Below are positions 4,023 to 36,522 of a stretch of 64,000 nt of DNA, in pieces. Each line of letters starts with the position of its first letter. The first letter of the stretch is position 1. The position numbers were made by a program, and so were the translations under genes. Source of the stretch: Candidatus Multivoradales bacterium (GTDB lineage Bacteria > Acidobacteriota > Thermoanaerobaculia > Multivoradales > J023). Below the pieces are notes generated by a model. It searched no databases, was not told the origin of the DNA, and was given only the letters and a program-made list of their open reading frames with translations. The stretch lies in contig CBDFLE010000006.1 of assembly GCA_965248925.1 (NCBI GenBank), positions 3,968,001 through 4,032,000 of the forward strand. Direction: 5' to 3'.

Positions 4023-4509
4023 TTGGTACCCCAGTTCTGAAAAGTAAAGAGCCGAGCTGAAATCGCCCGAGCCCGCTCCTCGAACCCGCCTTCTTGCCCC
4101 ATCTGGGCCGTGGATTCGAATTTCTACCCCAACTCTCTAAATAGAAGAGATTTATTGGTTTCGGTGCAATGCTACCCTCTGCGTCTACCGACTGTAGTGC
4201 CGCGTTTGGGTGAGCTGTGTGGCTTGGTAAGAATAGATCGCCGCCTAGATCCACAGAAAAATGCTCAAAGTAATTGCCGATGTTGTCCATGGCGATCTCA
4301 GGCATCTCTGTTTTCATCGCTCGTTTCAAAGTTTTTTCGCGGTATTTGCAATTCTAGGTGGCTCGAAATAGAGATCATTCACATATTGAAATGACCTATT
4401 TAAGGCTACCTTGAAGCACTCGGTTGTCTGCCCTTGGAGTAGGGACGAATATAACATAAGCGATAGAGAGGGGGGCTCGGCGGAGCCTCTGTGCCTTTCT
4501 TCTGAGCCG

Positions 4510-20221: not shown

Positions 20222-22167
20222 GTGTAGCTCGGAGTCCATGGTTGAAGCCTCTTCGGCTACCGCTGCTGGCGCGTTTGGCACTGACTTTGTCGGTGATTGG
20301 GTTGCTGCCGCTGCTGATCGGCTTTTACCAGCTGCGCAGCAACGAGGATGGGTTGCTAGCGCAAGTCCAGCGCTCGCACATCATTGCCGCCGCTAGTTGT
20401 GCCGAGCGGGTTGCCGCGCACCTTGATGGGCTGCGCACCTTGGCGCAGAGCACCGCCAACCAACCGGCGATTCAGTCCGATCCGGGATCGCCCACCGCCG
20501 GCGAGTTGTTGGCCGGTCTGCTGCACGCCCGCGCGGATGTGGTTTTAGTCGCTACCTACAATCTGGCTGGAGAATCCTATCTGGCGGCTCAGCGGCGCGA
20601 CTTGCGAGCTGAGATCGAGCCCGCCTTGAGCCGTGTCCTGGAATCCACGGAACCGATGGGCCTGGTTGCCGGCAGCAGCGCAGAGTGGCTGTTTTTTCGC
20701 GTTGCCTTGGTCGAGGAACAGGGCTATCTCATTTTGCTAGCCGAAGGAGAGCCGCTGGCTGGCATGGTGCAGGTGATCGAACTCGGTGAGGAAGCGCACT
20801 TGGTCTTGGCCGACCGCGATGGCGAGGTGTTCTACGGTGGTCTCGATGATCTGGCCGAGTTCCCGCCTGGCGCGGTCGAGCTAGCGGCTAGTGGCAAGCT
20901 CACTTCCAGTTGTCAGCGCTATTCATTCGCCGGCGTCGAGCAGTTGGTGGTGGCTCATCATTTAGTTCATGGCACGCCTTGGTTCGTACTTTCCCGGCAG
21001 CCGGCGCGGCAGGCGGAGATCGCCCGTGCGCGCATTGATCGGGCCCGCTGGTTAGCGGCAGGGCTGGTCCTGGTGCTCAGTGGAGTGGTGCTGGCATTGG
21101 CCTACTTCAGCGTCGTTCGGCCCTTGCGCCGGATTGTTGGTGCCCAACGCGAGCTGGCGGGTAGCGCCGCAAAGGTGGTGGCGGGCTCGGAAATTGAGCA
21201 GCTTGAGGAGTCCTTCCGGCTGCTCGAGCAAGGACAGCGCGATCGCGATGAGCTCGGCCAGGTGTTTCTCGGTCGCTACCAGGTGATCGAGCTGGCGGGC
21301 TCGGGGTCGATGGGCAACGTTTTTCGTGGCTGGGATCCCCGGTTGCGACGATCAGTGGCACTCAAGACCATCCGCCTTGACAGTGCCAAATTCGATCGCC
21401 AGAAACTCAGTCAGAGCTTGGTCGAGGAAGCGGTTGCCTACGCCCGCTTCAACCACCCCAACATCGTTACTGTTTATGATGTGTTGGAAGGTGGAGATTC
21501 GACCTGTATCGCGATGGAGTTTGTCGACGGCCCCTCTCTCGAAGCCCTGTTGGCCCGGCATGGGCCGCTAAGTCCGGAGCGGGCTCTGCATGTCGCCATG
21601 GCAGTGGCGCGGGCGCTGGTCGAAGCTCATGCCCATCAGCTGGTTCACCATGACATCAAGCCCGCCAACGTCTTGATCGGTAAGGACGGCGAGATCAAGG
21701 TGACCGATTTCGGCATCTCGGAGTTGCTCTCCTTCGCCACCCGCGACAAGCGGCAGATTCGCGGTACGCCTGGCTACATTCCTCCTGAGAGTCTTGAAAG
21801 CGGCCAATACGACACCCGTAGCGACCTCTTCGCTCTCGGGGTGGTGATCTACGAGTGCTTAACCGCGCGCCAACCCTTCGTGGGCAAGAATCTCCGTCAA
21901 ACCTTGCTGCGCACGGCCACCGAGACACCGGAGGAGCCCAGGGGCCTGGCGCCCAGGGTGCCGCAGCGGTTCTCCGATCTGGTGATGCAGCTCTTGGCCA
22001 AGGAACCTGCGCAGCGTCTCGATTCGGCGCTGGCGGTGGTGGAGGTTTTAGAAAGCTTGGCGGTCGGTATCGAGGACTCGCCCTGGTTGCCCGGTGATTT
22101 GGATCCTGAATTGGTGGCGTCTCCGCGGGACACCCGACACGGTACGCAGTGGGTCGGTCGTGGCTAG
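20203..22167 (+). CDS. Membrane Ser/Thr kinase with Cache-like extracytoplasmic sensor and HAMP-like linker
   Basis: Two TM helices flank a ~250-aa domain; GSGSMG, VALK, HHDIKPAN, DFG, GTPGYIPPE, SDLFALG. Confidence 0.88.
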   Translation: MGTIALSVARSPWLKPLRLPLLARLALTLSVIGLLPLLIGFYQLRSNEDGLLAQVQRSHIIAAASCAERVAAHLDGLRTLAQSTANQPAIQSDPGSPTAGELLAGLLHARADVVLVATYNLAGESYLAAQRRDLRAEIEPALSRVLESTEPMGLVAGSSAEWLFFRVALVEEQGYLILLAEGEPLAGMVQVIELGEEAHLVLADRDGEVFYGGLDDLAEFPPGAVELAASGKLTSSCQRYSFAGVEQLVVAHHLVHGTPWFVLSRQPARQAEIARARIDRARWLAAGLVLVLSGVVLALAYFSVVRPLRRIVGAQRELAGSAAKVVAGSEIEQLEESFRLLEQGQRDRDELGQVFLGRYQVIELAGSGSMGNVFRGWDPRLRRSVALKTIRLDSAKFDRQKLSQSLVEEAVAYARFNHPNIVTVYDVLEGGDSTCIAMEFVDGPSLEALLARHGPLSPERALHVAMAVARALVEAHAHQLVHHDIKPANVLIGKDGEIKVTDFGISELLSFATRDKRQIRGTPGYIPPESLESGQYDTRSDLFALGVVIYECLTARQPFVGKNLRQTLLRTATETPEEPRGLAPRVPQRFSDLVMQLLAKEPAQRLDSALAVVEVLESLAVGIEDSPWLPGDLDPELVASPRDTRHGTQWVGRG

Positions 22168-22189: not shown

Positions 22190-22237
22190 GCGCAGGGTTG
22201 AAACCCCGCGCTAAGTGATGACGTCCCTGTCGGGACG
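22190..22237. repeat. REP-like double hairpin
   Basis: GCGCAGGGTT-GA-AACCCCGCGC followed by CGTCCC-TGTC-GGGACG between convergent genes; single copy in this window. Confidence 0.45.
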
Positions 22238-22273: not shown

Positions 22274-25105
22274 TCAGTCGGTGGTGGATTTCTCTTTTGC
22301 CTCCTGACGCGATTGTTCGAGGATTTCGTCGAGTTCCTGGTTGGTCGCCTGGTAAGCGGCGAGGGTCGGGGTGAGCAACTCCTGGCAGTCCTCGGCCCTG
22401 CCTTCTCGGGCTGCCTTCTCGAGCTTGCCGAGGTACTGGGCCAAGGGCATCGCGCCTAGATTGGACGAGCTGCCGCGCAGCGAATGGGCGGCTTGCCTGA
22501 CCGCCGGCAAATCACCTTCTTCTACCGCTTGGCGCAGTTCGTCCAATCGTTCGTGGCTCTGCTCAAAATAGAGGTCAATCACTTCGCTGAGCACATCACG
22601 GCCGGTGCGCTGGCCGAGGGTGCGCAGAATGTCGAGCCTCTCGCTCTCGATCGCCTTGCGGTTGCCGTGGGGCGTTTCGCTCTCATCCACTGGTGCGGCC
22701 GCGAGCCACCGATCGATCAGGGCCGCTAGCTGTTCCTCGCGAAAGGGTTTCGAAAGGTAGTCGTCCATCCCCGCCGCGAGGCATTTGTGCTTATCGCCTT
22801 TCATCGCGTGGGCGGTCAGGGCGATGATCGGAAGGTGCTCTCCAGCACCCTCTCGGTGGCGGATGCGGCGGGTAGCCTCGTAGCCGTCGACTTCTGGCAT
22901 CTGACAGTCCATCAATACCAGATCGTAGGTCCTGCGGGCGACCGCATCGAGAGCTTGCTGTCCGTTCTCGACGCATTCGACGCGATAGCCCATGAATTCC
23001 AGCTGGCGTCTTGCTACTAGTTGATTGACCGGGTTGTCTTCTGCCAACAGGAGGAGGAACCGGGCGCGCTGAGCTTCAGCGGCTGGCATGAGGGCGGTAT
23101 TCGCGGCAGTGGAGTCGCGGGCGAAAGCCGCTGACGAGCTGGCGCGGCGCAAGTAGAGGTCGAACCAACAGGTCGTGCCGCTCCCCGAGGTACTCTCCAA
23201 CTCGATGTCGCCGCCCATTAGCTGCACCAGCCGCTTGGAGATCGCCAGCCCGAGACCGGTGCCGCCAAAGCGTCGGGCGGTGCTGCTGTCGGCTTGGGTG
23301 AAGGGAGCAAAGAGGTGCTCTTGGGCCTCGGGTGGAATGCCGATTCCGGTATCGCTGACCGTGAACCGCAGCAGGGGTTGCAGTGGATGGTCTTGCTGCA
23401 GGGAAATCTTCACCCGAACCTCACCCTGGCGGGTGAATTTGACCGCGTTCGACACCAGGTTGATTAGCACCTGGCGCAATCGAGCGGGATCGCCTTCAAG
23501 TTCAGTCGGTATTCCGCTAGCTGCCTCCAGCCGCAACTCGACCCCCTTCGCCTCGGCCCGCGGCGCCAGCAGCGAGGAGATGCCGCTGAGCAGATCACTG
23601 AGTCGGAAAGGCACGATGTTCAACGACAGCTTGCCGGCTTCGATCTTGGAGAAGTCGAGAATGTCGTCGATTACCTCTAGCAGACCGTTGGCCGAAGAGC
23701 GGATCACCCTGATGTACTCAGCATCCTGAGGTGGCAGCCGGCTCTTGCTGAGCAGCTCGGCCATGCCGATGATGCCCGCCATCGGTGTCCGGATCTCGTG
23801 GCTCATGTTGGCCAGGAACTGGCTCTTCGCCTGATTGGCCTGTTCGGCGGCTTCTTTCGCCAGGTGCATTTCGCGGGCTCGGCGTTCGGCGGAGATGTCG
23901 CGGTTGATCGACAAAACCGCGTCCCTACCGTGGTAGCGGATCGGAGTGGCGAGGATCTCCAGCGCCACCTCGCTACCGTCCTTGAGAAATTGCACGGTCT
24001 CAAATCGCTGGTGTTCTCCCCGGCGCAGGGTATTCGGATCGTACAGTCGGCCCTGCTCGACTTGCTGAGAAATATGGCCCAAGGGCTGGCCGACCAACTC
24101 CTCGCGGGTGAAGCCGAAGAGGGTGCAGGTGCGCAGGTTGACGTCGAGCACGATCTCACTCTCAGCTTCGAAGATGATGATGGCGTCGTGGGCACTGTCG
24201 ATCACCCGCCGATAGTCCAGTTGTCGCTCACGCAGTGCTTTCTCGGTTCGCCGGCGCTCGGTGGTGTCACGGACGATGGTCGAGAAATAGTCCAACGCGC
24301 CGCTGGCGGTGAGATGCGCCAAAACCACTTGCGAGGCGGGTAAACCGCGGCCGTCTCGGCGTACGAACTCGGTATCGCCAGACCAGGTACCGTCGTCGGC
24401 GGCGGCGGGCAACACTTGCTCCTCCATCCGCTGGGCGATCTCTGGCGGATGAAAATCGGCCAGCTGGGTCGACGATAGATTCTCCCGAGCGGCGATGCCG
24501 AGCATTCCGCGGCCGGCCTGGTTGAGATGCAAGATATAGCCCTGGGGATCAAGCATCGCCACCAGGTCGGTGGTGGCATTGAGAATCGCCAGATGGCGTT
24601 CCTGCGCCCGCTCCAAGCGTTTGCGATCGCTGATGTCGACGTACATCGCCCAGGTACCGATCGTCTTGCCGGAGTTGTTGGTCTGCGGCACGGCGCGCAA
24701 CAGGGTCTCGATTACCCGGCCGTCCGAAGCCACCAAATGTCTTTCTTCGGCTTGCATGCTACCGGCCAAGGATCGTTGGTAGTCACCCTTATCGAGCAGC
24801 AGCTCGCGCGATTGGGCGGTGTAGAAGTCGGCCAGCGGTTGACCGATCACCTCATCGCGAACGTAGCCCAGTGCCTTCAGGAACGGGCGGTTGCAGTCGG
24901 TGATTTCCGGCACCCCCTGGTCGAGGCGGGTGATGACAAACATCGCCGGAGCTTGTTCGAAGAAGTCGCGGCGCTTCGCCGCCAGCGCCCCCTCGCTCTC
25001 GGTGTTTGGGGCCGCCGCCAGCGTTGCTTCGAGTTCGGCCACTCGGGCGCGGAGCTCGCTAGCTTGCGCGGCGAGTTCCTTCTCGATCTTTGTTTGCTCG
25101 CCCAT
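22274..25105 (-). CDS. Cytoplasmic hybrid histidine kinase (3xPAS-HisKA-HATPase-REC-Hpt)
   Basis: [49 protein letters not shown]. Confidence 0.95.
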
Positions 25106-27249: not shown

Positions 27250-29175
27250 GTGAACCCTGAACTAGGCCCCGACCTGGACGAGAGCGATCTAGAGGAGATC
27301 GCTGCCTTGCTCGATGGTCGGCTCAAAGGCGCTGCTCGGCAGCAGGCTTTGCAGCTTCTCGACCAGAACGAGCAGGCATACCAGATCTACGTCGAGAGTG
27401 CCCGCTTCCTCGATTGGCAGCAAGAACAGGAGCCAGTGGCGCCGCTGGGCGAAGCTCTGCCCTCAGAATCGCGAACTCGCTGGCGGTGGCTCGCGGCAGT
27501 GGCTGCGTTGGCGCTGCTCGGCATGGCGCTTTGGTTGGCGAAGTTGACCACCCCACAGAATTCGGAGGAGTTCTTGGCCGGCGCCAATTATGCTCAGCAA
27601 AACAAGCTGCTGGCGCGCCAAATTTTCTCTGGCCTGGAAGGCGGTTTGGTGGCGAGTGATGATTGGCCCGCCTGGTTGCGGCCGCTTCTGGAGCCCTTGG
27701 CAAGTTGGCGCGCGTCTTCGCTCAACGACCTCGTGGCAGCAATGGAGGTGGGCACCGAGCACCACTATCAGATGGCTGGGTTGAACCTTGACCCCGATGT
27801 AGTCGCCGAGCAGAGCGAGCGCTTGGTCATGGGCGTGGTCGTGGGTCGCCAGCGTCAGCGGCTCCGATTGTTGCTCGAGGGGAGACTCGAGCCATCGCTC
27901 AAGAAACTCGATCAATTCGATCTCGCCTTCTACCTCTTCGCCCTGGGCAGCCCGGATTTGGCGGTGCAGCAATTCGCAAGTCTGAGCTCTGAACGCGGGT
28001 CGGGTTTCCAGGGTCAGAGTCTGGCGGTAGCGAATAACCTGGGTCTGGTGCAGCTGCTGCGGGCGCATGAAGGGTTGAATCGCTGTAGTTCGAACCTGGC
28101 AACTGCGGTCTTGCCACCGATGGCCTACGACCTGCGACGCCCATTCAGCGTCAAGCGGGGACTCGGTGAGGAATGGGCCCCATGCGAGGCGATCTTCGCT
28201 CCCCTACTCGACGAAGTTCTCGTCTCTTTCGTCGAGTTGATCGCTCGTGATCCATCCTACGAGCCGTCGCAGATCAACTACATGGCGGCACAGCTGCTCG
28301 GACATCGTGGCGATGAGTTGGCTGCCCATCTCGAGCAGCTACCGGAGGGCCTGCGGCGAACAGCCGCGGTCAATATATTTGCCGCTCTGGCTCCATTGGC
28401 CTTGCGTTACGACGTTTGTGAAGAGGACGAGTCTCTCTGTGCCAGTGCCTTGAAGCAGCTGGACGATTTGCGGGCCACGGCCGTGTTGCCGGGCGCCCTC
28501 GAAGGGCCGCTGAGTTACAACCGGGCGATGATCCTGCGACGGCTGGGTCGAGTCGATGAGAGTGAGTTGGAGTTGCGGCACTTTCTTGAGCTAACGGCGG
28601 GTGGGATCTACGAAGAAAGCGCTCGCTCGAAGTTGCGAACAAAGCAGGTGCCAACGCCACCGCTTGAAGACGCTGAGTTGCAAGCAGCGATCGTTGAAGC
28701 GCTGGACCGCATCGACCCGAATCAGCTCGACGTTCTTCGTCAACAGCCAGTTGCAATCGGTTCGTCGAGCTGGCGATTGCTGCGCCCGGGACCTTCGACT
28801 TCGCTCTCGCTGGTAGTTGCATCTGAGACTCAGACCGTTCTGGCGGTGAGGCTCCTCGACGTACCAGCTAGTCCAGCCAAACTTGGATTCGGCACCGGCG
28901 GTGAGCGCCCAAACTTGCTAGCTCCTCTTCGCCTTGATCTTGGCGAAGGGGACGAACTGTTCGGGTTCCGCCGTCTATCCACCTTGGTCCACGGTCAATC
29001 CGGGTTCGACAACGAAATCTGGATGCGCGGCGGATTGGGTTATCGGGTGATGCGCGGAGCCGACGGCAGACGGCAGGTTCAGGCTCAGATCTTGGTGCGT
29101 CCGGGGTTTATGGAACGGGCAGTCGAGGAAATCGCCGCCGAAGTAGTGTCCGAGGTGGCGTCGGGCACGCTCTGA
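27250..29175 (+). CDS. Putative anti-sigma factor: N-terminal ASD-like domain, one TM helix, extracytoplasmic TPR-like region
   Basis: EEIAALLDGRL..ARQQ; TM helix WRWLAAVAALALL; NNLGLV and YNRAMILRRLG TPR-like motifs; directly follows the sigma gene. Confidence 0.65.
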   Translation: MNPELGPDLDESDLEEIAALLDGRLKGAARQQALQLLDQNEQAYQIYVESARFLDWQQEQEPVAPLGEALPSESRTRWRWLAAVAALALLGMALWLAKLTTPQNSEEFLAGANYAQQNKLLARQIFSGLEGGLVASDDWPAWLRPLLEPLASWRASSLNDLVAAMEVGTEHHYQMAGLNLDPDVVAEQSERLVMGVVVGRQRQRLRLLLEGRLEPSLKKLDQFDLAFYLFALGSPDLAVQQFASLSSERGSGFQGQSLAVANNLGLVQLLRAHEGLNRCSSNLATAVLPPMAYDLRRPFSVKRGLGEEWAPCEAIFAPLLDEVLVSFVELIARDPSYEPSQINYMAAQLLGHRGDELAAHLEQLPEGLRRTAAVNIFAALAPLALRYDVCEEDESLCASALKQLDDLRATAVLPGALEGPLSYNRAMILRRLGRVDESELELRHFLELTAGGIYEESARSKLRTKQVPTPPLEDAELQAAIVEALDRIDPNQLDVLRQQPVAIGSSSWRLLRPGPSTSLSLVVASETQTVLAVRLLDVPASPAKLGFGTGGERPNLLAPLRLDLGEGDELFGFRRLSTLVHGQSGFDNEIWMRGGLGYRVMRGADGRRQVQAQILVRPGFMERAVEEIAAEVVSEVASGTL

Positions 29176-29190
29176 CACCCGCTTGACACC
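29173..29190 (+). promoter_or_regulatory. Putative enhancer (UAS) 1: TGACACC-N4-TGACACC
   Basis: Direct repeat with an 11-bp period about 100 bp upstream of sigma54 promoter 1; the same motif precedes promoter 2. Confidence 0.6.
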
Positions 29191-29280
29191 TCCTGCCGGT
29201 CTCTTGCCCCGTTGGGGTCATTCTGCATCAAACTGTTCATAAGAAGGATCTTAGGTAATTCCTGGCGCGCTTTCTCGAAG

Positions 29281-29297
29281 CTGGCGCAAGCCTTGCT
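29281..29297 (+). promoter_or_regulatory. Sigma54 -24/-12 promoter 1
   Basis: CTGGCGCAAGCCTTGCT; GG-N10-GC spacing; close to consensus YTGGCACGNNNTTGCW. Confidence 0.75.
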
Positions 29298-29307
29298 TTA
29301 GTCCTTC

Positions 29308-29416
29308 TTGTCTGGCAGCAAGATCCCCAGAACGGGATCGCCGGGCAGCACAAGGACTCCAGCGGAGAACCGCGCACTTCCGCTTTCGAGGACCGCTTCG
29401 GCGGTCCTTCTTTTTT
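29308..29416 (+). ncRNA. Candidate sigma54-dependent sRNA 1 (~110 nt)
   Basis: Bounded by promoter 1 and a terminator. 5' hairpin TGTCTGGC/GCCGGGCA with inner GATCCC/GGGATC; GCGG-AGAA-CCGC hairpin; CGCACTT; no ORF with an RBS. Confidence 0.65.
29388..29416 (+). terminator. Intrinsic terminator of sRNA 1
   Basis: AGGACCGC-TTCG-GCGGTCCT with a C(UUCG)G loop, followed by TCTTTTTT. Confidence 0.85.
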
Positions 29417-29479
29417 GCTCTACTGCATCCCTCACCGGTTGTGATGCCGGCCGAGTGTCCGACACTCTACGCACCTGTC

Positions 29480-29497
29480 TGACACCATGCTGACACC
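29480..29497 (+). promoter_or_regulatory. Putative enhancer (UAS) 2: TGACACC-N4-TGACACC
   Basis: TGACACCATGCTGACACC, 11-bp period, about 85-95 bp upstream of promoter 2. Confidence 0.6.
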
Positions 29498-29572
29498 TTC
29501 GCGGGCGCTGGCGAGTTTTCTGGAAAAGTTGATAACTCGTTTGTGTGCAGCAGTTAAGAAAATCATGCAAAA

Positions 29573-29589
29573 CTGGTATGAGGCTTGCT
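29573..29589 (+). promoter_or_regulatory. Sigma54 -24/-12 promoter 2
   Basis: CTGGTATGAGGCTTGCT; GG-N10-GC spacing; preceded by an AT-rich spacer. Confidence 0.75.
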
Positions 29590-29599
29590 ACTAGAGAAT

Positions 29600-29740
29600 C
29601 CCAGAGACCAAGCAGTCGGTGCCCGGCGCGGGCCGGGTACCAAGCCAGACGCGAACGAGTCTCTTGCCGGAGATCTCCCTTTGCGGACTCTCCGCACTTT
29701 CTCTCTCTCCAGGGGTCGCTCTGCGACCCCTGCTTCTTTT
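29600..29740 (+). ncRNA. Candidate sigma54-dependent sRNA 2 (~140 nt)
   Basis: 5' hairpin AGAGAC/GTCTCT enclosing GGTGCCCGGC/GCCGGGTACC; TGCGGA-CTC-TCCGCA hairpin; CGCACTT plus a CT tract; terminator. Confidence 0.65.
29710..29740 (+). terminator. Intrinsic terminator of sRNA 2
   Basis: CAGGGGTCGC-TCT-GCGACCCCTG perfect 10-bp stem followed by CTTCTTTT; the T-tract is on the + strand only. Confidence 0.8.
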
Positions 29741-31365
29741 CAGGGAAGTTCGAGCCCGGTCATCCGCATCCGCAAGCCGCTTTTCGAGACTTCGAGTTCG
29801 TCGACCATGGCGTCGAGGTCGCCGGCACAACTCTGCCATGAGGCCATGATCTCGGTGCGGTCGAGGTCGACCGCCTTGCGGACCTGCGCGCATCTTTCGA
29901 TCAAGGTGTAGAGAGAAGGTCTCGAGATGCCCAGCTGCTGGGCGGTGGGCTTGAGTTGCCAACGGTTGTTCCGCAAGGCGGTCCGTAGCTCCTCCTCGTC
30001 GACCTCGGAGGGTTTGCGAAAGCTGCTCGGCTTACGCCGTGGCGCGGCCGCTGCGGTCTCTAGCGCGGTGACCTCTGGCGCCCGTTGGCGGGCCAGGCTG
30101 GCTTCGGCCTCGCGCAGCATGCGCTCGATCTGGGGGCTGATCCTGACTTCCGCCGAGCCCCGGTTGGCCACCACCAGCTGGCGGGCCACGTTGCGCAGCT
30201 GGCGTACATTGCCGGGCCATGGATGGTGGGTCAAGCGGGCAACGATCGATGCCGGCAGCCAGGGGTTGTCAGAGTGAGCGAGTTCCCCCAGACGGTATTC
30301 CTCGCCAGTGCCTCGCAGTTCCTGGCGTAGGAAATGAACAAGCAGGCGGCCGATGTCTTCGCGGCGCTCGCGCAGCGGCGGTACGTTGATCTCGTAGCCC
30401 GACAAGCGATGCAGCAGAGGCTCACGGAACTTGCCGCTGCGGATCGCCGCTTCGAGATCGGCATCGGTGGCGGCGATCAAGCGAACATCGACCCGGTGGG
30501 CTTCTTGGCTGCCGACCCTCTGCACCTCACCGGATTCGAGCACCCGCAGCAGCAGCACTTGCACCTCCGAGGGGGCGTCGCCGATCTCGTCGAGGAAGAG
30601 GGTGCCGCCGTGAGCCCGTGAAAAGTAACCCACCTGATTGCGCACCGAACCGGTGTAGGCACCCTTGGCCGAGCCAAAGAGTTCAGCGGTGGCTAGGGAG
30701 GCCGGGACTGCCGCCAGGTTGACGCTGAGGAAATCTTGCCGCTGGCGCTTGCTGCTCTGGTGAATAGCCTGTGCCACCAGTTCCTTGCCGGTGCCGGTTT
30801 CGCTGCGCAGCAACACTGGCACTTCTAGGTCGGCGACGCGATCGATCTCCTCGCGAACTCTAACGATCGCGTCGCTTTCGCCGATCAGGCCGAATCGGTC
30901 TGCCTTGTAGACCGCTGCCTCGCGGGTCAGATGGAGCAGCAAAACCACTCGGCTGGCGAGCAGCAGCACCACCCCGCGTTGCAGATCATAGGCTGAGATC
31001 AAGTGTTCGTCCTCGATCTCCAGGCCATCCAGCAGCACGTCGCTGCCCCTGGACTCAAGGGTCAGGCGTAGGCCGTCGGTGCGCGTGCTGCGGCTCAAAC
31101 GGAGGGGAGTTCGGCTGAGATAGGGGGATTCCAGCGGCCGCGCCTCGCGCTGCCCGGGGATCGAGAATTCCGGAATCAAACGCGAGACCAAGGCGGGCTT
31201 GCTTTCGGTTAGGCCGTGCAGAAGGGCGCGTTCGCCGACGCGATCGATCTGCGGATGGTAAATAACCGTCAGGACAGGGATCTTGGCCCGCGCCCTGGCG
31301 CGACGCTCAGCAAACTGCGCGCGCAGCTCGGGCGTCAGCTTCTCGACAGTCTCATCTGGTGCCAT
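29740..31365 (-). CDS. Sigma54-dependent enhancer-binding protein (FHA-like N-terminus, AAA+, Fis-type HTH plus extra helical/HTH tail)
   Basis: SETGTGKE, ELFGSAKGAYTGS, TLFLDEIG, WPGNVRQL, TAQQLGISRPSLY. Confidence 0.93.
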   Translation of the reverse strand: MAPDETVEKLTPELRAQFAERRARARAKIPVLTVIYHPQIDRVGERALLHGLTESKPALVSRLIPEFSIPGQREARPLESPYLSRTPLRLSRSTRTDGLRLTLESRGSDVLLDGLEIEDEHLISAYDLQRGVVLLLASRVVLLLHLTREAAVYKADRFGLIGESDAIVRVREEIDRVADLEVPVLLRSETGTGKELVAQAIHQSSKRQRQDFLSVNLAAVPASLATAELFGSAKGAYTGSVRNQVGYFSRAHGGTLFLDEIGDAPSEVQVLLLRVLESGEVQRVGSQEAHRVDVRLIAATDADLEAAIRSGKFREPLLHRLSGYEINVPPLRERREDIGRLLVHFLRQELRGTGEEYRLGELAHSDNPWLPASIVARLTHHPWPGNVRQLRNVARQLVVANRGSAEVRISPQIERMLREAEASLARQRAPEVTALETAAAAPRRKPSSFRKPSEVDEEELRTALRNNRWQLKPTAQQLGISRPSLYTLIERCAQVRKAVDLDRTEIMASWQSCAGDLDAMVDELEVSKSGLRMRMTGLELP

Positions 31366-31386: not shown

Positions 31387-33795
31387 TCAATCGAACAGCG
31401 AAGCCTCGGTCTGTTCGTACCAGTCGACAATACCGGCCCACACCTGCTCGGCGGTTTCGGCGAATTGGAAGAGGTCGACATCCTCCGGGTCGATCACCCC
31501 TTCCGCGGCCAGGAACTCGGCATCGAAGACGCCGCGCCAAAAAGACTCGCCGACCAGGAAGACCGGCAGAGGGCGGACCTTGCGAGTCTGGATCAAGCAA
31601 AGAGTCTCGAACAGTTCATCGAGGGTGCCGTAGCCGCCGGGGAAAGCCACCAGCGCCTTGGCGCGCATCAGAAAGTGCATCTTGCGCATGCCGAAATAGC
31701 GAAATTGGAAGCACAGGTCGGGGGTGATGTAGGGATTCGGGTACTGCTCGTGGGGCAGGGTGATATTCAACCCGAGAGACTCGGCGCCGACATCGTGAGC
31801 GCCGCGGTTGCCGGCCTCCATAATGCCCGGTCCGCCGCCGGTGACCACCATTAAGCGATTGTCCTCGGGGCCGCCGCCGGCTTTGCTCACCAGCTGGCCT
31901 AGGCGCCGCGCCTCGTCGTAGTAGCGACATTTGGCGAGCACCCGCTCGCGGATCGATACCTGGCGTTTCAGGTTATGGTTCTGCGGTTCCTGGGTGAGAG
32001 CTTGGCGGGCCGCCTCCAGCTTTTGCTGGGCGTCTTTCTGCTCGATAACTCGAGTGCCGCCGAAGACCACGATGGTTGAGCGAACGCCGTGTTCGACCTG
32101 CAGCAGCTGGGCTTTGGTGTACTCCAGCTGTAGACGCACGCCGCGCAGCTCCGCGCGCTGCAGCAAGGCGAGGTCGGCGTTGGGTAGGCGGTAGGAAGCA
32201 CTCTCCATCAACGCTTCGACTCTCTCTGGCGCCGCGGCGTCGAGGGTGGCGGATTTGGGTCGACTGTCGGGCAGGGGCTGGCAATGGCGCGGCGGGATCG
32301 GTGACGGCCTCTTGGTTGGCTTGCTGGGTTGAGCTTTGGCGGCCGCTGATTTGCGGCGTTTTGGGCGCGGCGGATCGGCCTTCTTGAGCTCCTCCAGTAG
32401 GTCGATCTCGTCGTGCTGCTGGGGAATGAAAGTCTGGCAGCCGAACTGCTCTTCCAAGTGGCCGGCCAGAGCCTCGGCCGAGTCGGTTTCGCCATGTACC
32501 AAGCAGACCAGCTTGGGTGGTTTCGGCGCACTGGCCACCCACTGCAACAACTCGTCGCGGTCAGCGTGCCCTGACAGGCCGCGGAACGATAGGCATTGGC
32601 ACCGCACCGGGATGTATTGGCCGTGGATCTTGACTTGGCGTTTGCCGTCGGTGAGCTGTCGGCCGCGGGTGCCTGGCGCTTGGAAGCCAGCCAGCATTAC
32701 CAGGTTCTTGGAGTCGGGGGCAAGGCGTTTGAGATGGTGCAGCACCCGGCCGGCGGTCAACATGCCGCTGGCGGAAATTATGATCCGCGGCCCCTTCATG
32801 TTGTTCAGCTCGATCGAGTCCTGCACCGAGCGGTGGAAGTGGACATCTTCCGGGAACAGCCGCAGGCGGCCGTCTTCGAGCACGTCCGGGTCGAGGTTGC
32901 GGCGGTTCAAGAAGCGGCTGTAGATCTTGGTTGCGTTGATCGCCATTGGGCTGTCGATGTGGATCGGGACCTGCGGAATCGAGCCGTCGCGCATCAACCG
33001 CCGCAGCATCAAGCTGACTTGCTGTGAACGGCCGACGGCGAAAGCTGGAATCAACACTGTACCGCCGCGGCCCAGGGTCTTGTTGAGCGGCTTGCCCACC
33101 TGTTCCAGCATGCTGGTGCTGACGTGCTGACGCTGGCCATAGGTCGATTCTAGGATCAAGACATCACAGCTTGGCAGCGGCTTGGGGTCGAGGTGCAGGG
33201 GCATTTCGAAACGGCCAATATCACCGCTGTAGACCAGGCGCAGACCCTGGTTGCGTAGCTTGGCCTCGATTTCGATGAAGGCGGCGCCCAGCAGATGCCC
33301 GGAGTTGTGAAAGCGGGCTCGGATGCGGTCCCCCTTGATCAGCGACAACCAGCGCTCGTAGGGCACGCTGCGGCGCAGAATGAGTGCTTTGGCGGCGTCT
33401 TCAGCGTCGAAAAGGGGCAGCGCGGGCTTGTGTTTGCTAAAGCCCTTCTTGTTGGCGTAGCGGGCATCTTCTTCTTGGATCTTAGCGGCATCGAGCAACA
33501 TCAGCTCGGCCAGCTCGAAGGCCGCCGGGGTCATGTGTACCGGTGCCGTCAAGCCGAGTTTGACCAGCCTTGGCAAATAACCCACATGATCGATGTGGGT
33601 GTGCGACAGCAGCACATGATCGATGCTCTTGCAGTCGAACCCGGGGGATTCCCAATTGCGCAAGCGGAGCTTCTTGCGCCCCTGGAACATGCCGGCGTCG
33701 AGCAGAATGTTGGTCTTGCCGACGCTGAACAGGTGTTTCGAGCCGGTGACGGTGCCAGCGGCACCATGGAATGCTAGACGGATGCTGTTGCTCAA
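31387..33795 (-). CDS. Fusion of an MBL/beta-CASP ribonuclease and a LOG-family (TIGR00730-like) nucleotide phosphoribohydrolase
   Basis: GAAGTVTGSK, HTHIDH, SGHLLG, ESTYG, FAVGR, SGHAD, VHGE; then TGGGPGIMEA and PGGYGTLDE. TTG start at 33795 follows AAGGAG (ORF open to 33888). Confidence 0.9.
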   Translation of the reverse strand: MSNSIRLAFHGAAGTVTGSKHLFSVGKTNILLDAGMFQGRKKLRLRNWESPGFDCKSIDHVLLSHTHIDHVGYLPRLVKLGLTAPVHMTPAAFELAELMLLDAAKIQEEDARYANKKGFSKHKPALPLFDAEDAAKALILRRSVPYERWLSLIKGDRIRARFHNSGHLLGAAFIEIEAKLRNQGLRLVYSGDIGRFEMPLHLDPKPLPSCDVLILESTYGQRQHVSTSMLEQVGKPLNKTLGRGGTVLIPAFAVGRSQQVSLMLRRLMRDGSIPQVPIHIDSPMAINATKIYSRFLNRRNLDPDVLEDGRLRLFPEDVHFHRSVQDSIELNNMKGPRIIISASGMLTAGRVLHHLKRLAPDSKNLVMLAGFQAPGTRGRQLTDGKRQVKIHGQYIPVRCQCLSFRGLSGHADRDELLQWVASAPKPPKLVCLVHGETDSAEALAGHLEEQFGCQTFIPQQHDEIDLLEELKKADPPRPKRRKSAAAKAQPSKPTKRPSPIPPRHCQPLPDSRPKSATLDAAAPERVEALMESASYRLPNADLALLQRAELRGVRLQLEYTKAQLLQVEHGVRSTIVVFGGTRVIEQKDAQQKLEAARQALTQEPQNHNLKRQVSIRERVLAKCRYYDEARRLGQLVSKAGGGPEDNRLMVVTGGGPGIMEAGNRGAHDVGAESLGLNITLPHEQYPNPYITPDLCFQFRYFGMRKMHFLMRAKALVAFPGGYGTLDELFETLCLIQTRKVRPLPVFLVGESFWRGVFDAEFLAAEGVIDPEDVDLFQFAETAEQVWAGIVDWYEQTEASLFD

Positions 33796-33922
33796 GATCG
33801 CTCCTTCCCTCTCCCGGGGATCTCTCACCGCCGCCGCGGTCACGGGGTGGCGCATTTCGAAGTCTTCTTCGTTGTTGCAGGCTAACATGCGATCTGTCTT
33901 TGGCCGCGCCGGATGGTCTCCC

Positions 33923-36160
33923 TCAGACGAGTTCGATCAAGGCACCGTCAGAACGTGCCGGGCAAGTGTGTCCGATCACTGTAGCGGCCGCGTGTCCTGT
34001 GGTTTGCAGCTCGGCGATGGCGCTGCTGGCCGCCGCCGGGTTGAGGCCGATCAGCAGGCCGCCACTGGTTTGCGGATCAAAGAGCAGCTCGCTCCTGGGG
34101 TTGGAAGTCTTGGTCGATGACGTCAGCCGTCGCCGCCCGGCCGCGGTGTTGGTGTCGTGAAAAGTGCTCTTTATTCCCTGTTCTAGCAACTCCAGGGCTC
34201 CGGGCAGGGCCGGTAGACGATCCACTTCCAACCGCGCCGAGAGGCCCGAGGCTTGCAGCATCTCCCCGAGGTGACCAGCAAGGCCAAAGCCGGTGATATC
34301 GGTGGCGCCGCGGGCTCCGTGCCGCAAGGCGATCTGGGCGGCCTGTTGGTTGGTCAGTTGTAGTGAGGCCAGCGTGCTCTCGAGCCAAGAGCCGCGGGCC
34401 CGTCCACGCATGTCGGCTTGCAACAGCACGCCGGTGCCGAGGGGCTTGGTGAGCAATAGGGCTTGCCCTGGTAGCAAGGCATCGATGCGCAGCAGGGGCG
34501 CGGACGAGGGCGCCAGGCCGGAGACTTGGAAGCCCACTAGTAATTCGCCGGCGCTGATCGTATGGCCGCCGAGCAAGGTCACGCCGAGGGGCTCGAAGAC
34601 GGCTGTGGCGCCGGCCAGTATCTGCACCAACACCTCTTCGCTAGTGGCGTCGTCGAGTTCGGCCGGCAATGCCACCAGAGCCAGCGCGTGAGTGGTCTCG
34701 ACACCGGTGGCCCAGAGGTCGGACAGTGCATTGACCGCCGCTACCCGGCCGACCAGGTAGGGGTCGTCGGTGAAGGCGCGGAAGGCATCGATGCTAGAAA
34801 CCAGCAGGTCTCCACCAGGGGTGACTACCACCGCGGCGTCGTCCGGCGTCTCTAAGCCGAGAACCACGCTCGGATCCGGGGTGCCTGGCCTGAGCCGGTC
34901 GAGGGCCCGAGTGAGCACGCTCTGGCCTATCTTGGCGGCGCAGCCACCGCAGGCCATGGGCTCGTCGGAGTCGTCCATTTGTGCCATGTCGGCGAAGAGC
35001 GGCAGCAGCCTACCGGCGCCATCCAGCACCTGAAAACGGCGCATGAAGCGGCGGTCGATCCAGTCCTTGAGCCGCATCACCCAGGCGCCGGCGAAGGAAA
35101 ATCCGCGTTTGCCGCCGATCGCTTCACCGTTGCCCAGATTTAACAGGGTGAGGAAGTCCCTCTGCGGTCGATAGGGCCGCAGCGGTCGGCCATCCAAGGC
35201 GGCCCGTAAGTTGGCTCCCAGGTAGGGGCCTTGACGCACCGCGTAGACCCCGGCCTTGGCGGTGTCGGGATGCTCGATCATGGTGGCACAATCACCCACC
35301 GCGAACAGCTCGTCGTGGCCGACCACTTGCAAGGTCGAGCGGATCTTGACGAAGCCACGCCGGTCGGTGGGCAAACCGGAGTTGCGAAAAATGGGCTGGC
35401 TGATCGCGCCGGTGACCCATAGCAGCAGGTCGGTGGCCAGGCGTTCGCCGCCTTCCAACTCGACCTCGCCGGCGTGGGCTGCCGCCACGCGGGTGTCGCA
35501 GCGCACTTCGATGCCGGCCGTCTGAGCGTGGTGCTCGACCCGCTGCCGCAAACCGTCCGGGTAGTCTGGGAGGAGTTGTCGGCCGGCTTGCAGCAAGCTG
35601 ACCTCGACCGCTGCTCGAGTCTCGGCCAGCAGGCGTTGGCGCAAGGTGAAGGCAAGTTCGACCCCACCGGCGCCGCCTCCCACCACTACTACTCGCAGTG
35701 GCTGGTTCTGCGATCTCTGGCGCAAGCCGACCAGAAGTTCGTCAATCCTTCGCACGAAGCTGGCGATCGGGCGGGTCGGCAAGGAGTGTTGCCGGATGCC
35801 GGGAAGATCCAGACCCGCGACGGTGGAGCCGATGTCGAACGATGCCAAGTCATAAGCGATGTCGGGACGGCCTTCGAGGGCGATCCGGCGGTGCGGAGCA
35901 TCGATGCCAACGGCTCGCGCCAAGATCACCCTAGCGCCTGCTTGGCGGGCTAGCGGCACCACGTCGATCTCGATTTCCGCGGCACTGTACTGGCCGGCGG
36001 CGAAGCCCGGCACCATGCCTGAATAGACCGCTATTGGCGTATCAACCACCAGGGTCAAGTGCAGGTCGCCGCGCGGTTTCATCGTCAGTTGGCGCAGGAT
36101 CTGAACGTGGGTGTGGCCGCCACCCACCAGGACGAGCTCGCGTTGGCTACGGGTATTCAT
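33923..36160 (-). CDS. selD: Selenophosphate synthetase fused to an N-terminal FAD-dependent (NDH-2-like) oxidoreductase
   Basis: LVGGGHTH, YSGMVPG, VGGGAGG, GDCA; then CGGCAAK, DDAAV, GGHT, LTKPLGTG, TDITGFGL, DPQTSGGLL. Confidence 0.92.
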   Translation of the reverse strand: MNTRSQRELVLVGGGHTHVQILRQLTMKPRGDLHLTLVVDTPIAVYSGMVPGFAAGQYSAAEIEIDVVPLARQAGARVILARAVGIDAPHRRIALEGRPDIAYDLASFDIGSTVAGLDLPGIRQHSLPTRPIASFVRRIDELLVGLRQRSQNQPLRVVVVGGGAGGVELAFTLRQRLLAETRAAVEVSLLQAGRQLLPDYPDGLRQRVEHHAQTAGIEVRCDTRVAAAHAGEVELEGGERLATDLLLWVTGAISQPIFRNSGLPTDRRGFVKIRSTLQVVGHDELFAVGDCATMIEHPDTAKAGVYAVRQGPYLGANLRAALDGRPLRPYRPQRDFLTLLNLGNGEAIGGKRGFSFAGAWVMRLKDWIDRRFMRRFQVLDGAGRLLPLFADMAQMDDSDEPMACGGCAAKIGQSVLTRALDRLRPGTPDPSVVLGLETPDDAAVVVTPGGDLLVSSIDAFRAFTDDPYLVGRVAAVNALSDLWATGVETTHALALVALPAELDDATSEEVLVQILAGATAVFEPLGVTLLGGHTISAGELLVGFQVSGLAPSSAPLLRIDALLPGQALLLTKPLGTGVLLQADMRGRARGSWLESTLASLQLTNQQAAQIALRHGARGATDITGFGLAGHLGEMLQASGLSARLEVDRLPALPGALELLEQGIKSTFHDTNTAAGRRRLTSSTKTSNPRSELLFDPQTSGGLLIGLNPAAASSAIAELQTTGHAAATVIGHTCPARSDGALIELV

Positions 36161-36348
36161 TGTCGATGGATCTCGCTCTGCGTGTCCGGCATTGAGGCTG
36201 TTGCTGAGAAGTAGGTGGCAGATTATTCCACGCCGAAGGGCGCGGGTCAGGAGGGGCAGGACCTCTGGTAGTGTTTCGCCGCGACAGCAGAGAGTTGCGG
36301 GTATCACCGACGATACGGGGCCAGCAGAAGATGCGGATGGGTCCAACC

Positions 36349-36522
36349 AACCCACATACCGCGCGAATTTCGGTAATCGCCCTCACTGCCCATGCCATGG
36401 CCGGCGATCGGCAGCACGCGCTAGCCGCGGGTTGTGACGAGTTCGAGACCAAGCCGATCGAGTTCCCCCGCTTACTGGCCAAAATTGCTGCCTTGGTGGC
36501 CAGCGGCGAAGGGGCAGAATGA
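36349..36522 (+). pseudogene. C-terminal half of a receiver-domain protein
   Basis: [31 protein letters not shown] is present; the N-terminal half with the acidic pocket is absent. Confidence 0.7.

Follow-up and report, generated by a model that had tools for sequence, protein, structure and literature searches.

The window, a stretch of 64,000 nucleotides from a soil-type bacterium, contains a gap of ~570 bp in which two short candidate transcription units without ORFs lie in tandem (Table 1). Upstream of the gap, an ECF-type sigma factor gene is followed by the gene for P0002, in which the N-terminal region conserved among its relatives precedes a hydrophobic segment; relatives were found for residues 5-120 only, and a weak NCBIfam anti-sigma match falls under the cut-off. 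Downstream, and convergent with both units, lies the gene for the enhancer-binding protein (bEBP) P0001. Elsewhere, the genome possesses rpoN (Sigma54_DBD, 214 bits, C5:808454-808930), hfq (Hfq match, 56.9 bits) and 82 Pkinase matches. When the sequence was re-read, every element that the initial annotation had listed was present where it had been placed.

Table 1. Genes and predicted elements in and around the gap (window coordinates)
Feature	Position	Strand	Remarks
ECF-type sigma factor gene, 5' of P0002	26396..27136	+	TIGR02937, 49.5 bits (cut-off 42.9)
Upstream gene P0002, 641 aa, anti-sigma-like	27250..29175	+	3' end overlaps unit 1 enhancer
AGTGTCCGA block, unit 1	29145..29153	+	inside 3' end of P0002
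Unit 1 enhancer (UAS), TGACACC-N4-TGACACC direct repeat	29173..29190	+	91 bp from repeat end to promoter TGG
AT-rich spacer, unit 1, enhancer to promoter	29200..29281		GC 0.43-0.47; 48% AT overall
Unit 1 putative -24/-12 promoter, TGGCGC-N5-TTGCT	29282..29297	+	score 10/11
Candidate sRNA 1, ~110 nt	29307..29416	+	start predicted from promoter geometry, end from terminator
Unit 1 intrinsic terminator	29388..29416	+	stem 29388-29409, 9 pairs, 6 GC; tail CTTTTTTGCT
AGTGTCCGA block, unit 2	29454..29462	+	part of palindrome GAGTGTCCGACACTC
Unit 2 enhancer (UAS), TGACACC-N4-TGACACC direct repeat	29480..29497	+	76 bp from repeat end to promoter TGG
AT-rich spacer, unit 2	29500..29573		GC 0.40-0.50; 55% AT
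Unit 2 putative -24/-12 promoter, TGGTAT-N5-TTGCT	29574..29589	+	score 9/11
Candidate sRNA 2, ~140 nt	29599..29740	+	both ends predicted
Unit 2 intrinsic terminator	29710..29740	+	stem 29710-29732, 10 pairs, 8 GC; T-rich tail
bEBP P0001, 541 aa, convergent with both units	29740..31365	-	identified with Pfam; presumed activator

The direct repeat TGACACC-N4-TGACACC has two exact matches in the 7.98-Mb genome, counted on both strands, and both lie in the gap, one in each unit; the half-site TGACACC alone occurs 616 times. The first TGA of the unit 1 enhancer is the stop codon of P0002. The 9-mer AGTGTCCGA is found at an equal offset in the two units, and its unit 1 copy contains an inverted GTGTC half-site 26 nt 5' of the direct repeats. 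The spacers are AT-rich, as the initial annotation had proposed, with a GC content of 0.43 (29200-29259) and 0.40 (29530-29589) compared with ~0.6 in the flanks, and the two enhancer-promoter distances are within the ~70-150 bp expected of sigma54 upstream activator sites. Both putative promoters carry the correctly spaced GG (-24) and GC (-12) dinucleotides of the consensus TGGCAC-N5-TTGCW; unit 2 has TAT instead of the consensus CAC, and two of the six positions of its -24 element deviate. The pattern TGGYRY-N5-TTGCW matches four times in the window against an expectation of 0.51, and none of 100 shuffles reached four. Single matches are common, with 2258 sigma54-like sites scoring at least 9 in the genome.

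Both candidate RNAs fold better than any of their 200 shuffles, at -47.6 kcal/mol for sRNA 1 (z -3.65) and -64.3 kcal/mol for sRNA 2 (z -3.32), and the opposite strands fold less well (z -2.01 and -2.87 for units 1 and 2, respectively). In sRNA 1, a 5' hairpin is predicted to be followed by a GCGG/CCGC hairpin (29362-29373), CGCACUU with a pyrimidine-rich single strand (29372-29389) and the terminator; in sRNA 2, the predicted order is a GC-rich hairpin (29618-29641), a GCGGA/UCCGC hairpin (29683-29695), CGCACUU with a CU-rich single strand (29693-29709) and the terminator. The short hairpins of the initial annotation were found in both, and the long 5' hairpin said to begin at +1 held for unit 1, whereas unit 2 possesses a strong inner hairpin at 29618-29641 and an outer helix that appears in the minimum-energy fold and is absent from the centroid. 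The two RNAs have a 3' module in common, in which a short hairpin with GCGG leads into CGCACUU and a single-stranded, pyrimidine-rich stretch, followed by the U-tailed terminator; otherwise the units share short collinear blocks only. In the predicted folds, the pyrimidine-rich stretch before each terminator is unpaired; a single-stranded seed of this kind, a terminator with a U tail and an hfq gene in the genome are the features expected of Hfq-dependent base-pairing sRNAs.

The + strand intrinsic terminators reported to end both units were recovered as stems of nine and ten pairs with T-rich tails. The unit 1 terminator would also halt transcription that runs on from the ECF sigma and anti-sigma genes 5' of it, and it could simply be the terminator of that operon. 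Genome-wide, a strict terminator follows seven of the 2258 sigma54-like sites, two of which are units 1 and 2; this is about as frequent as in 170-nt windows taken at random (8 of 4000, ~0.2%). In agreement with the claim that neither unit has an ORF with an RBS, no + strand ORF of at least 20 aa ends within either unit, ORFs that start inside cross the terminators, and no ATG was read in either unit. Neither RNA had been recognised as a member of a family, and a scan with Rfam 15 likewise returned no family match in either unit: between 29100 and 29800, at E up to 10, the search produced just one chance microRNA match (E 1.8) and no Qrr, and Acido-Lenti-1 at 22191-22237 was the sole match in the whole window to pass the gathering threshold.

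P0001 possesses an FHA-fold N-terminus (residues ~27-150), an AAA+ sigma54-interaction domain (160-326), a lid, an HTH_8 domain (454-486) and a tail of 55 aa. This genome has no other full-length member of the family, which has many paralogs in relatives, and the search for an orthologue in the collections covered got no closer than 57% identity. A Pfam search with the N-terminal domain at E up to 10 returned no family, PF00498 included; a profile of the domain matches the FHA domain 3gqs (E 0.0012), and with the AlphaFold2 model (pLDDT 89.1) nearly all of the Foldseek matches listed for this domain were FHA domains, such as OdhI (4qcj, E 4.1e-4, target-normalised TM 0.76). Residues R42, G44, S61, R62, S84 and R85 are conserved in the domain. 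P0001 has the Walker B motif FLDEIGD. Its Walker A motif is SETGTGKE, with S for the first glycine, and the L1 loop reads GAYTGS rather than GAFTGA, each being unique among 81 rows of the family, and on the strength of these unusual residues the activity of P0001 may be impaired.

Tandem sites of the form [CT]GACA[CG][CT] occur 20 times in the genome, and four of them are followed by a sigma54 promoter, at 76, 77, 88 and 91 bp, with spacers of 48-71% AT. These four are units 1 and 2 and the genes for two paralogous secreted proteins at C6:277136 and C6:281627, 3.7 Mb away, and the recurrence of the same enhancer type before two more sigma54 promoters suggests a four-promoter regulon.

Related arrangements are present beside paralogs of P0001 in other genomes. 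Direct repeats with a GAC(A/G)(C/T) core lie ~70-110 bp 5' of a neighbouring sigma54 promoter in several paralog loci, and repeats of this kind with a 9-12 bp period precede strong sigma54 promoters in L002, L005, L007, L013, L015, L016 and L018, and likewise in L022, which belongs to another class of the phylum. Exact repeat runs of at least 8 were found at 10 of 60 promoters beside family bEBPs, compared with 4.5% of random positions. L002, the locus of the paralog second closest to P0001 in its DNA-binding end, uses four (C/T)GACAC repeats. Two loci of the family, L005 and L159, contain a stand-alone unit without an ORF beside the bEBP gene, composed of an enhancer, a sigma54 promoter and a terminator-like hairpin, which qualifies as a strict terminator in L159 only. 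A crude rule applied to the 55 strong promoters that neighbour family bEBPs places most of them either divergently at the head of the bEBP gene or downstream of it in the same orientation; judged from these layouts, the tail-to-tail arrangement at P0001 is not usual for the family.

On the observed sequence elements and their rarity, the domains of P0001 and the enhancer logic seen in part of the family, it is rather probable that the gap holds two independent paralogous sRNA genes, of ~110 and ~140 nt, that are driven by P0001 and sigma54 and likely encode base-pairing RNAs. Both units are probably real sigma54- and bEBP-dependent sRNA genes, and the repeat-marked promoters beside paralogs make P0001 a credible activator of them. 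P0001 would bind the TGACACC direct repeats, probably together with the upstream GTGTC/GACAC copy, and the AT-rich spacer would allow it, once bound, to reach sigma54-RNA polymerase by looping to the -24/-12 promoter, which lies 76-91 bp further 3'; ATP hydrolysis by the AAA+ domain would then open the promoter. Each transcript is predicted to start ~11-12 nt past the -12 GC and to stop at the intrinsic terminator. The FHA domain suggests that one of the many Ser/Thr kinases of the genome may gate the activity of P0001 through a phosphothreonine signal, and P0001 probably drives the two distant secreted-protein genes as well. The most likely mode of action of both RNAs would be the regulation of mRNAs by base pairing, with the help of Hfq.

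It is unlikely that the units are instead relics, in which enhancer-promoter pairs that once drove protein genes have lost the coding parts and now yield short, functionless transcripts. The setting of the family agrees with such an origin, given that the same crude rule finds an ORF with an SD no more than 300 nt away at 51 of the 55 strong promoters, and that the other two promoters with this enhancer type in the genome drive secreted proteins; their locus carries two IS elements, which indicates that rearrangement occurs. Searches of 151 genomes from the order and of 193 loci, moreover, detected no homologue of either RNA. Against a relic origin, a strong + strand terminator is present in both, against a background of 0.2%, both RNAs fold better than every shuffle, the 3' module is common to the two and collinear, the sequence shows no trace of a reading frame, and similar stand-alone units recur at L005 and L159.

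Cis-antisense action or transcriptional interference as the main role, in which convergent sigma54 transcription or pairing with a long 3' UTR of the bEBP mRNA would feed back on the activator, is also improbable. The 3' end of unit 2 coincides with the bEBP stop codon, which the final T of the terminator overlaps, and the T-runs of the hairpins lie on the + strand only, leaving the bEBP mRNA with no canonical terminator, so that it could run antisense through both units. Against this, the strong + strand terminators should prevent + strand transcription from entering the bEBP gene, interference does not require two tandem units, and the short units of L005 and L159 lie on the same strand as their bEBP genes. 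A cis role is compatible with simultaneous action in trans.

That the RNAs sequester a protein, as CrcZ or RsmZ do, instead of pairing with mRNAs is highly unlikely. There are known cases of sponge RNAs that depend on sigma54, exist in multiple copies and are encoded beside a bEBP gene (CrcZ/CrcY with CbrB), and target prediction gave no clear match: a duplex scan of 6794 start regions found nothing above background, with score tails as expected for the number of comparisons, a best duplex that was a 13-nt perfect match at C6:751569-752909, and the complement of the shared motif in seven start regions against 3.8 expected. CsrA, however, was not found in the genome (completeness 96.9%), no repeated short motif was seen within either RNA, and by our own arithmetic their GGA count is near expectation. 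A chance constellation, for which the abundance of sigma54-like sites might speak, or a pair of small protein genes is extremely improbable, as the occurrence of two such sets of enhancer, spacer, promoter and terminator within 570 bp is far beyond chance and the units have neither an ATG nor an ORF contained before the terminators.

The preferred reading, that of two sRNA genes under P0001, has counterparts in known systems. Vibrio Qrr1-5 are paralogous sRNAs that depend on sigma54, the bEBP LuxO and Hfq, and one of their genes adjoins the bEBP gene; LuxO belongs to the response regulators and has an inverted repeat as its site, and the Qrr genes are scattered. The gap resembles this system in its multiple paralogous candidate sRNA genes of sigma54/bEBP type beside a bEBP gene, in a genome with hfq, but differs in its tandem units and direct repeats and in the absence of an Rfam Qrr match. 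CrcZ/CrcY with CbrB and GlmY with GlrR are further cases of a sigma54-dependent sRNA gene directly beside a bEBP gene, in which the RNAs sequester proteins (Crc/Hfq and RapZ, respectively) and each activator is the response regulator of a two-component system. The order of crcZ after cbrB is mimicked at L005 and L159. No comparable repeated motif was seen in the two RNAs here. Myxococcus xanthus is said to possess FHA-domain bEBPs (Jelsbak et al. 2005) of FHA, AAA+ and HTH architecture that occur in multiple versions within the genome and are believed to link signals of Ser/Thr kinases with sigma54. P0001 appears to share this architecture, but its FHA domain is missed by the Pfam model and found by structure prediction. 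We know of no sRNA target of an FHA-type bEBP, and none was among the papers listed in a literature search. Regulatory RNAs of Acidobacteriota are, to our knowledge, almost unstudied, and the papers listed included no sigma54-dependent sRNA from this phylum.

Qrr/LuxO is the subject of PMC10162802, and CrcZ/CrcY-CbrB and GlmY-GlrR are the subject of PMC6292655, PMC6296734 and PMC7073468. Pxr offers a close layout: according to PMC5568312, the pxr gene of Myxococcus and Cystobacter lies in a gap beside the sigma54-dependent regulator gene nla19, with a sigma54 promoter 5' of it and an RNA predicted to form several stem-loops, and Cystobacter has tandem diverged pxr paralogs with a sigma54 promoter each. 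The likeness, at the level of layout only, comprises a known or candidate sRNA gene next to a regulator gene, its own sigma54 promoters and tandem paralogs; pxr lies downstream of nla19, in contrast to the convergent genes here, and Nla19 is called a response regulator, in contrast to the FHA-fold input domain of P0001, and the phylum differs too. PMC9765219 describes, for the bEBP Nla28, two to five tandem imperfect repeats of a short sequence 5' of sigma54 promoters, comparable to the repeats here but with the half-site CT[C/G]CG[C/G]AG and variable spacing as opposed to TGACACC and a 10-11 bp period.

Given the Pxr/Nla19 precedent (PMC5568312), the initial annotation went too far in naming the gap a candidate new regulatory system. 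Its proposal of an sRNA module driven by the adjacent bEBP fares better, as both units look like independent sigma54 units and the four-promoter enhancer set and the paralog repeats agree with it; the module would not be an undescribed kind of system. The units would belong with a known kind of RNA switch (Pxr/Nla19, Qrr/LuxO, CrcZ/CbrB), and what is less ordinary is the FHA-type activator and its expanded family.

On paper, the locus is a complete circuit open to testing, from a candidate FHA sensor, an activator and a defined enhancer motif to a pair of promoters and their RNAs, and the two additional target genes could serve as internal controls; if the RNAs were unexpressed, it would still be a clean case of enhancer-promoter pairs without a downstream coding gene. 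Paralogous activators with short direct repeats could also offer a simple readout of sigma54 regulons in large, poorly annotated genomes. A broader and less probable reading is put forward tentatively, namely that an Acidobacteriota lineage has expanded an FHA-type bEBP to many paralogs per genome, each with its own direct-repeat 'address' (GAC(A/G)(C/T) variants, 10-11 bp period) and a private neighbouring sigma54 promoter, with an sRNA as the target in at least three genomes. If true, this would constitute a pathway from Ser/Thr kinase through FHA-bEBP and sigma54 to sRNA that is undescribed in any bacterium, with the pair in the window as its clearest case, and no regulatory sRNA of Acidobacteriota would have had a known activator before.

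The 565-bp gap between the end of the plus-strand gene P0002 at 29175, which encodes a 641-aa anti-sigma-like protein, and the end of the minus-strand bEBP gene P0001 at 29740, the presumed activator, contains one layout in two copies, units 1 and 2. The direct repeat, AT-rich spacer, promoter, hairpins and terminator that the initial annotation described for both copies were all recovered in the same positions. Each presumed RNA possesses a short GCGG/CCGC-type hairpin, followed by the sequence CGCACUU common to both, about 11 nt of unpaired pyrimidine-rich sequence and the terminator, and when these 3' modules are aligned with MAFFT (n=2 sequences) the terminator stems fall one column out of register. 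The fold check suggested at that stage was favourable to both RNAs (z = -3.65 for presumed RNA 1 and -3.32 for presumed RNA 2; 0 of 200 shuffles as good), and the opposite strands of both units fold less exceptionally. The earlier statement that the units lack an RBS-led ORF agrees with the absence of an ATG from unit 1 and unit 2 and with the finding that all plus-strand ORFs of at least 20 aa starting inside either unit read through the terminator. Rfam, likewise, assigned neither unit to a family. The sole Rfam match in the window is an Acido-Lenti-1 RNA, flanked by a Ser/Thr kinase gene on one side and by the 3' end of a gene for a hybrid PAS histidine kinase on the other. Directly upstream of the units are an ECF sigma factor gene and P0002, whose reading frame stops at the first TGA of the unit 1 enhancer.

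Features of the two units, the presumed activator, related promoters and neighbouring genes
Feature	Position	Strand	Description	Basis
Acido-Lenti-1 RNA	22191-22237	+	38.3 bits (gathering score 37)	
Ser/Thr kinase gene	21277-22023 (kinase domain)			
Hybrid PAS histidine kinase gene	22274-25105	-		
ECF sigma factor gene and P0002	26396-29175	+		
Unit 1 enhancer	29173-29190	+	TGACACC-N4-TGACACC	sequence
Unit 1 spacer			GC down to 0.43	
Unit 1 promoter	29282-29297	+	TGGCGC-N5-TTGCT	sequence
Unit 1 putative RNA stretch			~110 nt	
Unit 1 terminator	29388-29409 (stem)	+	T-rich tail to 29416	
Unit 2 enhancer	29480-29497	+	TGACACC-N4-TGACACC	sequence
Unit 2 spacer			GC 0.40	
Unit 2 promoter	29574-29589	+	TGGTAT-N5-TTGCT	sequence
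Unit 2 putative RNA stretch			~140 nt	
Unit 2 terminator	29710-29732 (stem)	+	tail to 29740	
P0001 (bEBP gene)	29740-31365	-, convergent	541 aa; sigma54-interaction AAA+ domain, lid, Fis-type HTH	
Ribonuclease-type fusion gene	31387-33888	-	833 aa; beta-CASP/MBL ribonuclease-type and LOG/SLOG (Lysine_decarbox) domains	
Oxidoreductase-type fusion gene	33923-36355	-	810 aa; pyridine-nucleotide disulphide oxidoreductase and AIR-synthase-type (AIRS/AIRS_C) domains	
C6:277136(-)	L196 (own genome) 5136	-	GACAC-type direct repeats and sigma54 promoter	
C6:281627(-)	L196 (own genome) 9627	-	GACAC-type direct repeats and sigma54 promoter	

When the repeat was relaxed to [CT]GACA[CG][CT] with 3-4 nt between copies, 20 sites were found in the genome, four of which precede a sigma54 promoter at 76, 77, 88 or 91 bp, with spacers that are 48-71% AT. 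These four promoters are those of units 1 and 2 together with C6:277136(-) and C6:281627(-), the genes behind which encode two paralogous proteins (686 and 390 aa) that are 44% identical, possess signal-peptide-like N-termini and have no Pfam match. The same enhancer type thus recurs independently at two other promoters, which makes the enhancer-promoter pairing credible. Two IS elements, ISL3 and IS3-type, lie between the two protein genes, and an Atlas search with the secreted protein returned no match. Duplexfold pairing of the full-length RNAs with the 5' UTRs of both secreted-protein genes produced spanning structures that are meaningless. In the wider target prediction, a 13-nt match falls at the start codon of C6:751569-752909, but nothing rose above background.

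No Pfam model matches the first 160 residues of P0001, even at E 10. For a structure model derived from 45 N-termini of the family (pLDDT 89.1), the PDB matches are nearly all FHA domains, OdhI, GarA and KIF1A among them, and the N-terminal family profile matches the FHA domain 3gqs with an E-value of 0.0012. The activity of P0001 may be gated via this FHA domain; Ser/Thr-kinase matches in the genome number 82. P0001 is the sole case among 81 family rows in which the first glycine of the Walker A motif is replaced (SETGTGKE, residues 188-195) and in which the L1 loop reads GAYTGS instead of GAFTGA (residues 235-240). It is also the one full-length copy of its family in this genome; relatives of the same family and order possess many full-length paralogues at 44-57% identity, with at least 16 rows in one genome (G016) and at least 14 in another (G009) among the matches listed. 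No P0001 orthologue was found, the best full-length relatives being 55-57% identical among 40 relatives and 45% identical among metagenome contigs, and no syntenic locus was found for comparison, P0002 matching relatives over its first ~120 residues only.

A family survey of 80 loci, 20 from the P0001 search of relatives and 60 more fetched, yielded 55 sigma54 sites scoring 10-11/11 outside bEBP coding regions, most of which either point away from the 5' end of the bEBP gene or follow that gene closely in the same orientation. A strong sigma54 promoter adjoins most family copies (L002-L020, L135-L194). An SD-preceded ORF was called within 300 nt at 51 of the 55 sites, by a crude rule whose false calls include unit 1 of the window and L005, and the first ORFs at several promoters have a signal-peptide-like start when read by eye. 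Several promoters are preceded by direct repeats with a GAC core and a 9-12 bp period: CTGACAC in four copies at L002, GTCCGACGT in at least four tandem copies at L005, GTCCGACATT in three at L013, TTCGACATCG in two at L016, GACATCC at L143 and CGACACCTC at L190. The repeats are paralogue-specific around the shared core, and several targets start like secreted proteins; L022, from a Thermoanaerobaculia MAG, exhibits the same repeat-promoter pattern. Exact repeat runs of at least 8 occur at 10 of 60 promoters versus 4.5% of random positions. Given these GAC-core repeats beside family bEBPs, the TGACACC repeats of the window, which adjoin the sole family member in the genome, are of the type apparently used by the P0001 family. 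Similarity at the DNA-binding end is weakly linked to GACAC use (3 of the 20 closest rows versus 2 of 60). A scan of contigs from other genomes for the enhancer and promoter pattern gave 14 stretches, against about eight expected by uniform-base arithmetic; most were set aside as belonging to unrelated taxa, leaving as relevant only L022 and L023 (Acidobacteriota), both of which precede protein genes.

Short non-coding targets are predicted elsewhere in the family and so are not unique to this genome. At both L005 (G012) and L159 (G020), repeats accompany a strong sigma54 promoter, with ~100-125 nt that hold no credible ORF and a hairpin resembling a terminator, which is called strictly at L159 but not at L005, and both units sit directly behind the bEBP gene and ahead of a convergent gene. 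At L150 (G016:C22, 4294-4560, +), the leader behind a sigma54 promoter is 190 nt long and contains a strong intrinsic terminator, with an SD and then a signal-peptide-like ORF after it; the leader may act as an attenuator or be riboregulated. Rfam gave no match for L005, L159, L150 or L196, and the L005, L159 and L150 RNAs show no likeness to those of the window and no conservation, the L159 unit being absent as a conserved element from 23 other genomes of its family. The short unit of L159 contains the decamer CACTTCCCAC (~4180-4190), which recurs at L174 some 20-30 nt ahead of the promoter at 4471 (-), and the RNAs of the window carry the related CGCACTT(C/T)C. CACUUCC is likewise shared with the L159 RNA and is found at L174 close to a promoter but not within it; these recurrences may be due to chance and were not used as evidence. 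The RNAs of the window were equally without relatives: nhmmer with both against 193 loci (1.02 Mb) found nothing below E 0.1, blastn-short found no further copy in their own genome, and a DNA search with 29270-29745 in 150 other genomes of the order found matches of 24-48 nt in 10, at E ~1e-3 to 1e-2, which are scattered over the query and were treated as chance. As neither an orthologous bEBP nor a homologous RNA was found, the refutation proposed earlier from missing conservation beside orthologues is uninformative. A search for sequencing runs listed four entries, all from one study and none of them RNA.

The reading favoured, with moderate confidence, is that the units are two sigma54- and bEBP-dependent sRNA genes, probably encoding Hfq-type base-pairing RNAs, with an FHA-gated activator. 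That they are relic promoters is unlikely, and the same low probability attaches to the RNAs working mainly in cis, as antisense or by interference, on the mRNA of the convergent bEBP gene, with which the lack of a terminator for that mRNA on the minus strand is consistent. Both rpoN and hfq were found in the genome, in which no csrA was detectable, and a function of the RNAs as protein sponges is less probable still. The exact repeat TGACACC-N4-TGACACC has only two copies in the 7.98-Mb genome, both in this gap (half-site, n=616), and units 1 and 2 are two of the seven sigma54-like sites, among 2,258, that have a strict terminator 50-220 nt behind them, a total that itself equals the random rate (8 of 4,000 windows); the joint layout is thus more than chance, and a chance or coding origin of the units is highly improbable. 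Three enhancer sites with one mismatch elsewhere in the genome were rejected for want of a good promoter downstream, and a sigma54-like match at 37331-37346 (-) was dropped as apparent coding sequence without GACAC repeats.

Qrr/LuxO, CrcZ/CbrB and GlmY/GlrR resemble the arrangement in the window more loosely than Pxr/Nla19 does. According to PMC5568312, the Pxr/Nla19 layout is the same as that of the units and includes tandem diverged paralogues, each with its own sigma54 promoter; tandem half-site enhancers are described for Nla28 in PMC9765219. The sRNA-module interpretation first proposed is partly supported, and the layout itself was already known. Unlike the known sigma54-sRNA/bEBP systems, P0001 possesses an FHA-fold input domain rather than a receiver domain, and the window differs further in phylum, in convergent orientation and in having no RNA family match. 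Within literature that is not subscription-only, no paper was found that deals with sigma54-dependent sRNAs, or with this expansion of bEBPs, in Acidobacteriota. A distance of 21 nt separates the end of the ribonuclease-type fusion gene from the bEBP start, which makes co-transcription of the two probable, and the presence of a gene of this type next to that of an sRNA activator may have some relevance; the oxidoreductase-type fusion gene lies beyond it. As sRNA genes, units 1 and 2 would be transcribed from their sigma54 promoters under P0001, and C6:277136(-) and C6:281627(-), ahead of the secreted-protein genes, constitute natural positive controls for them.
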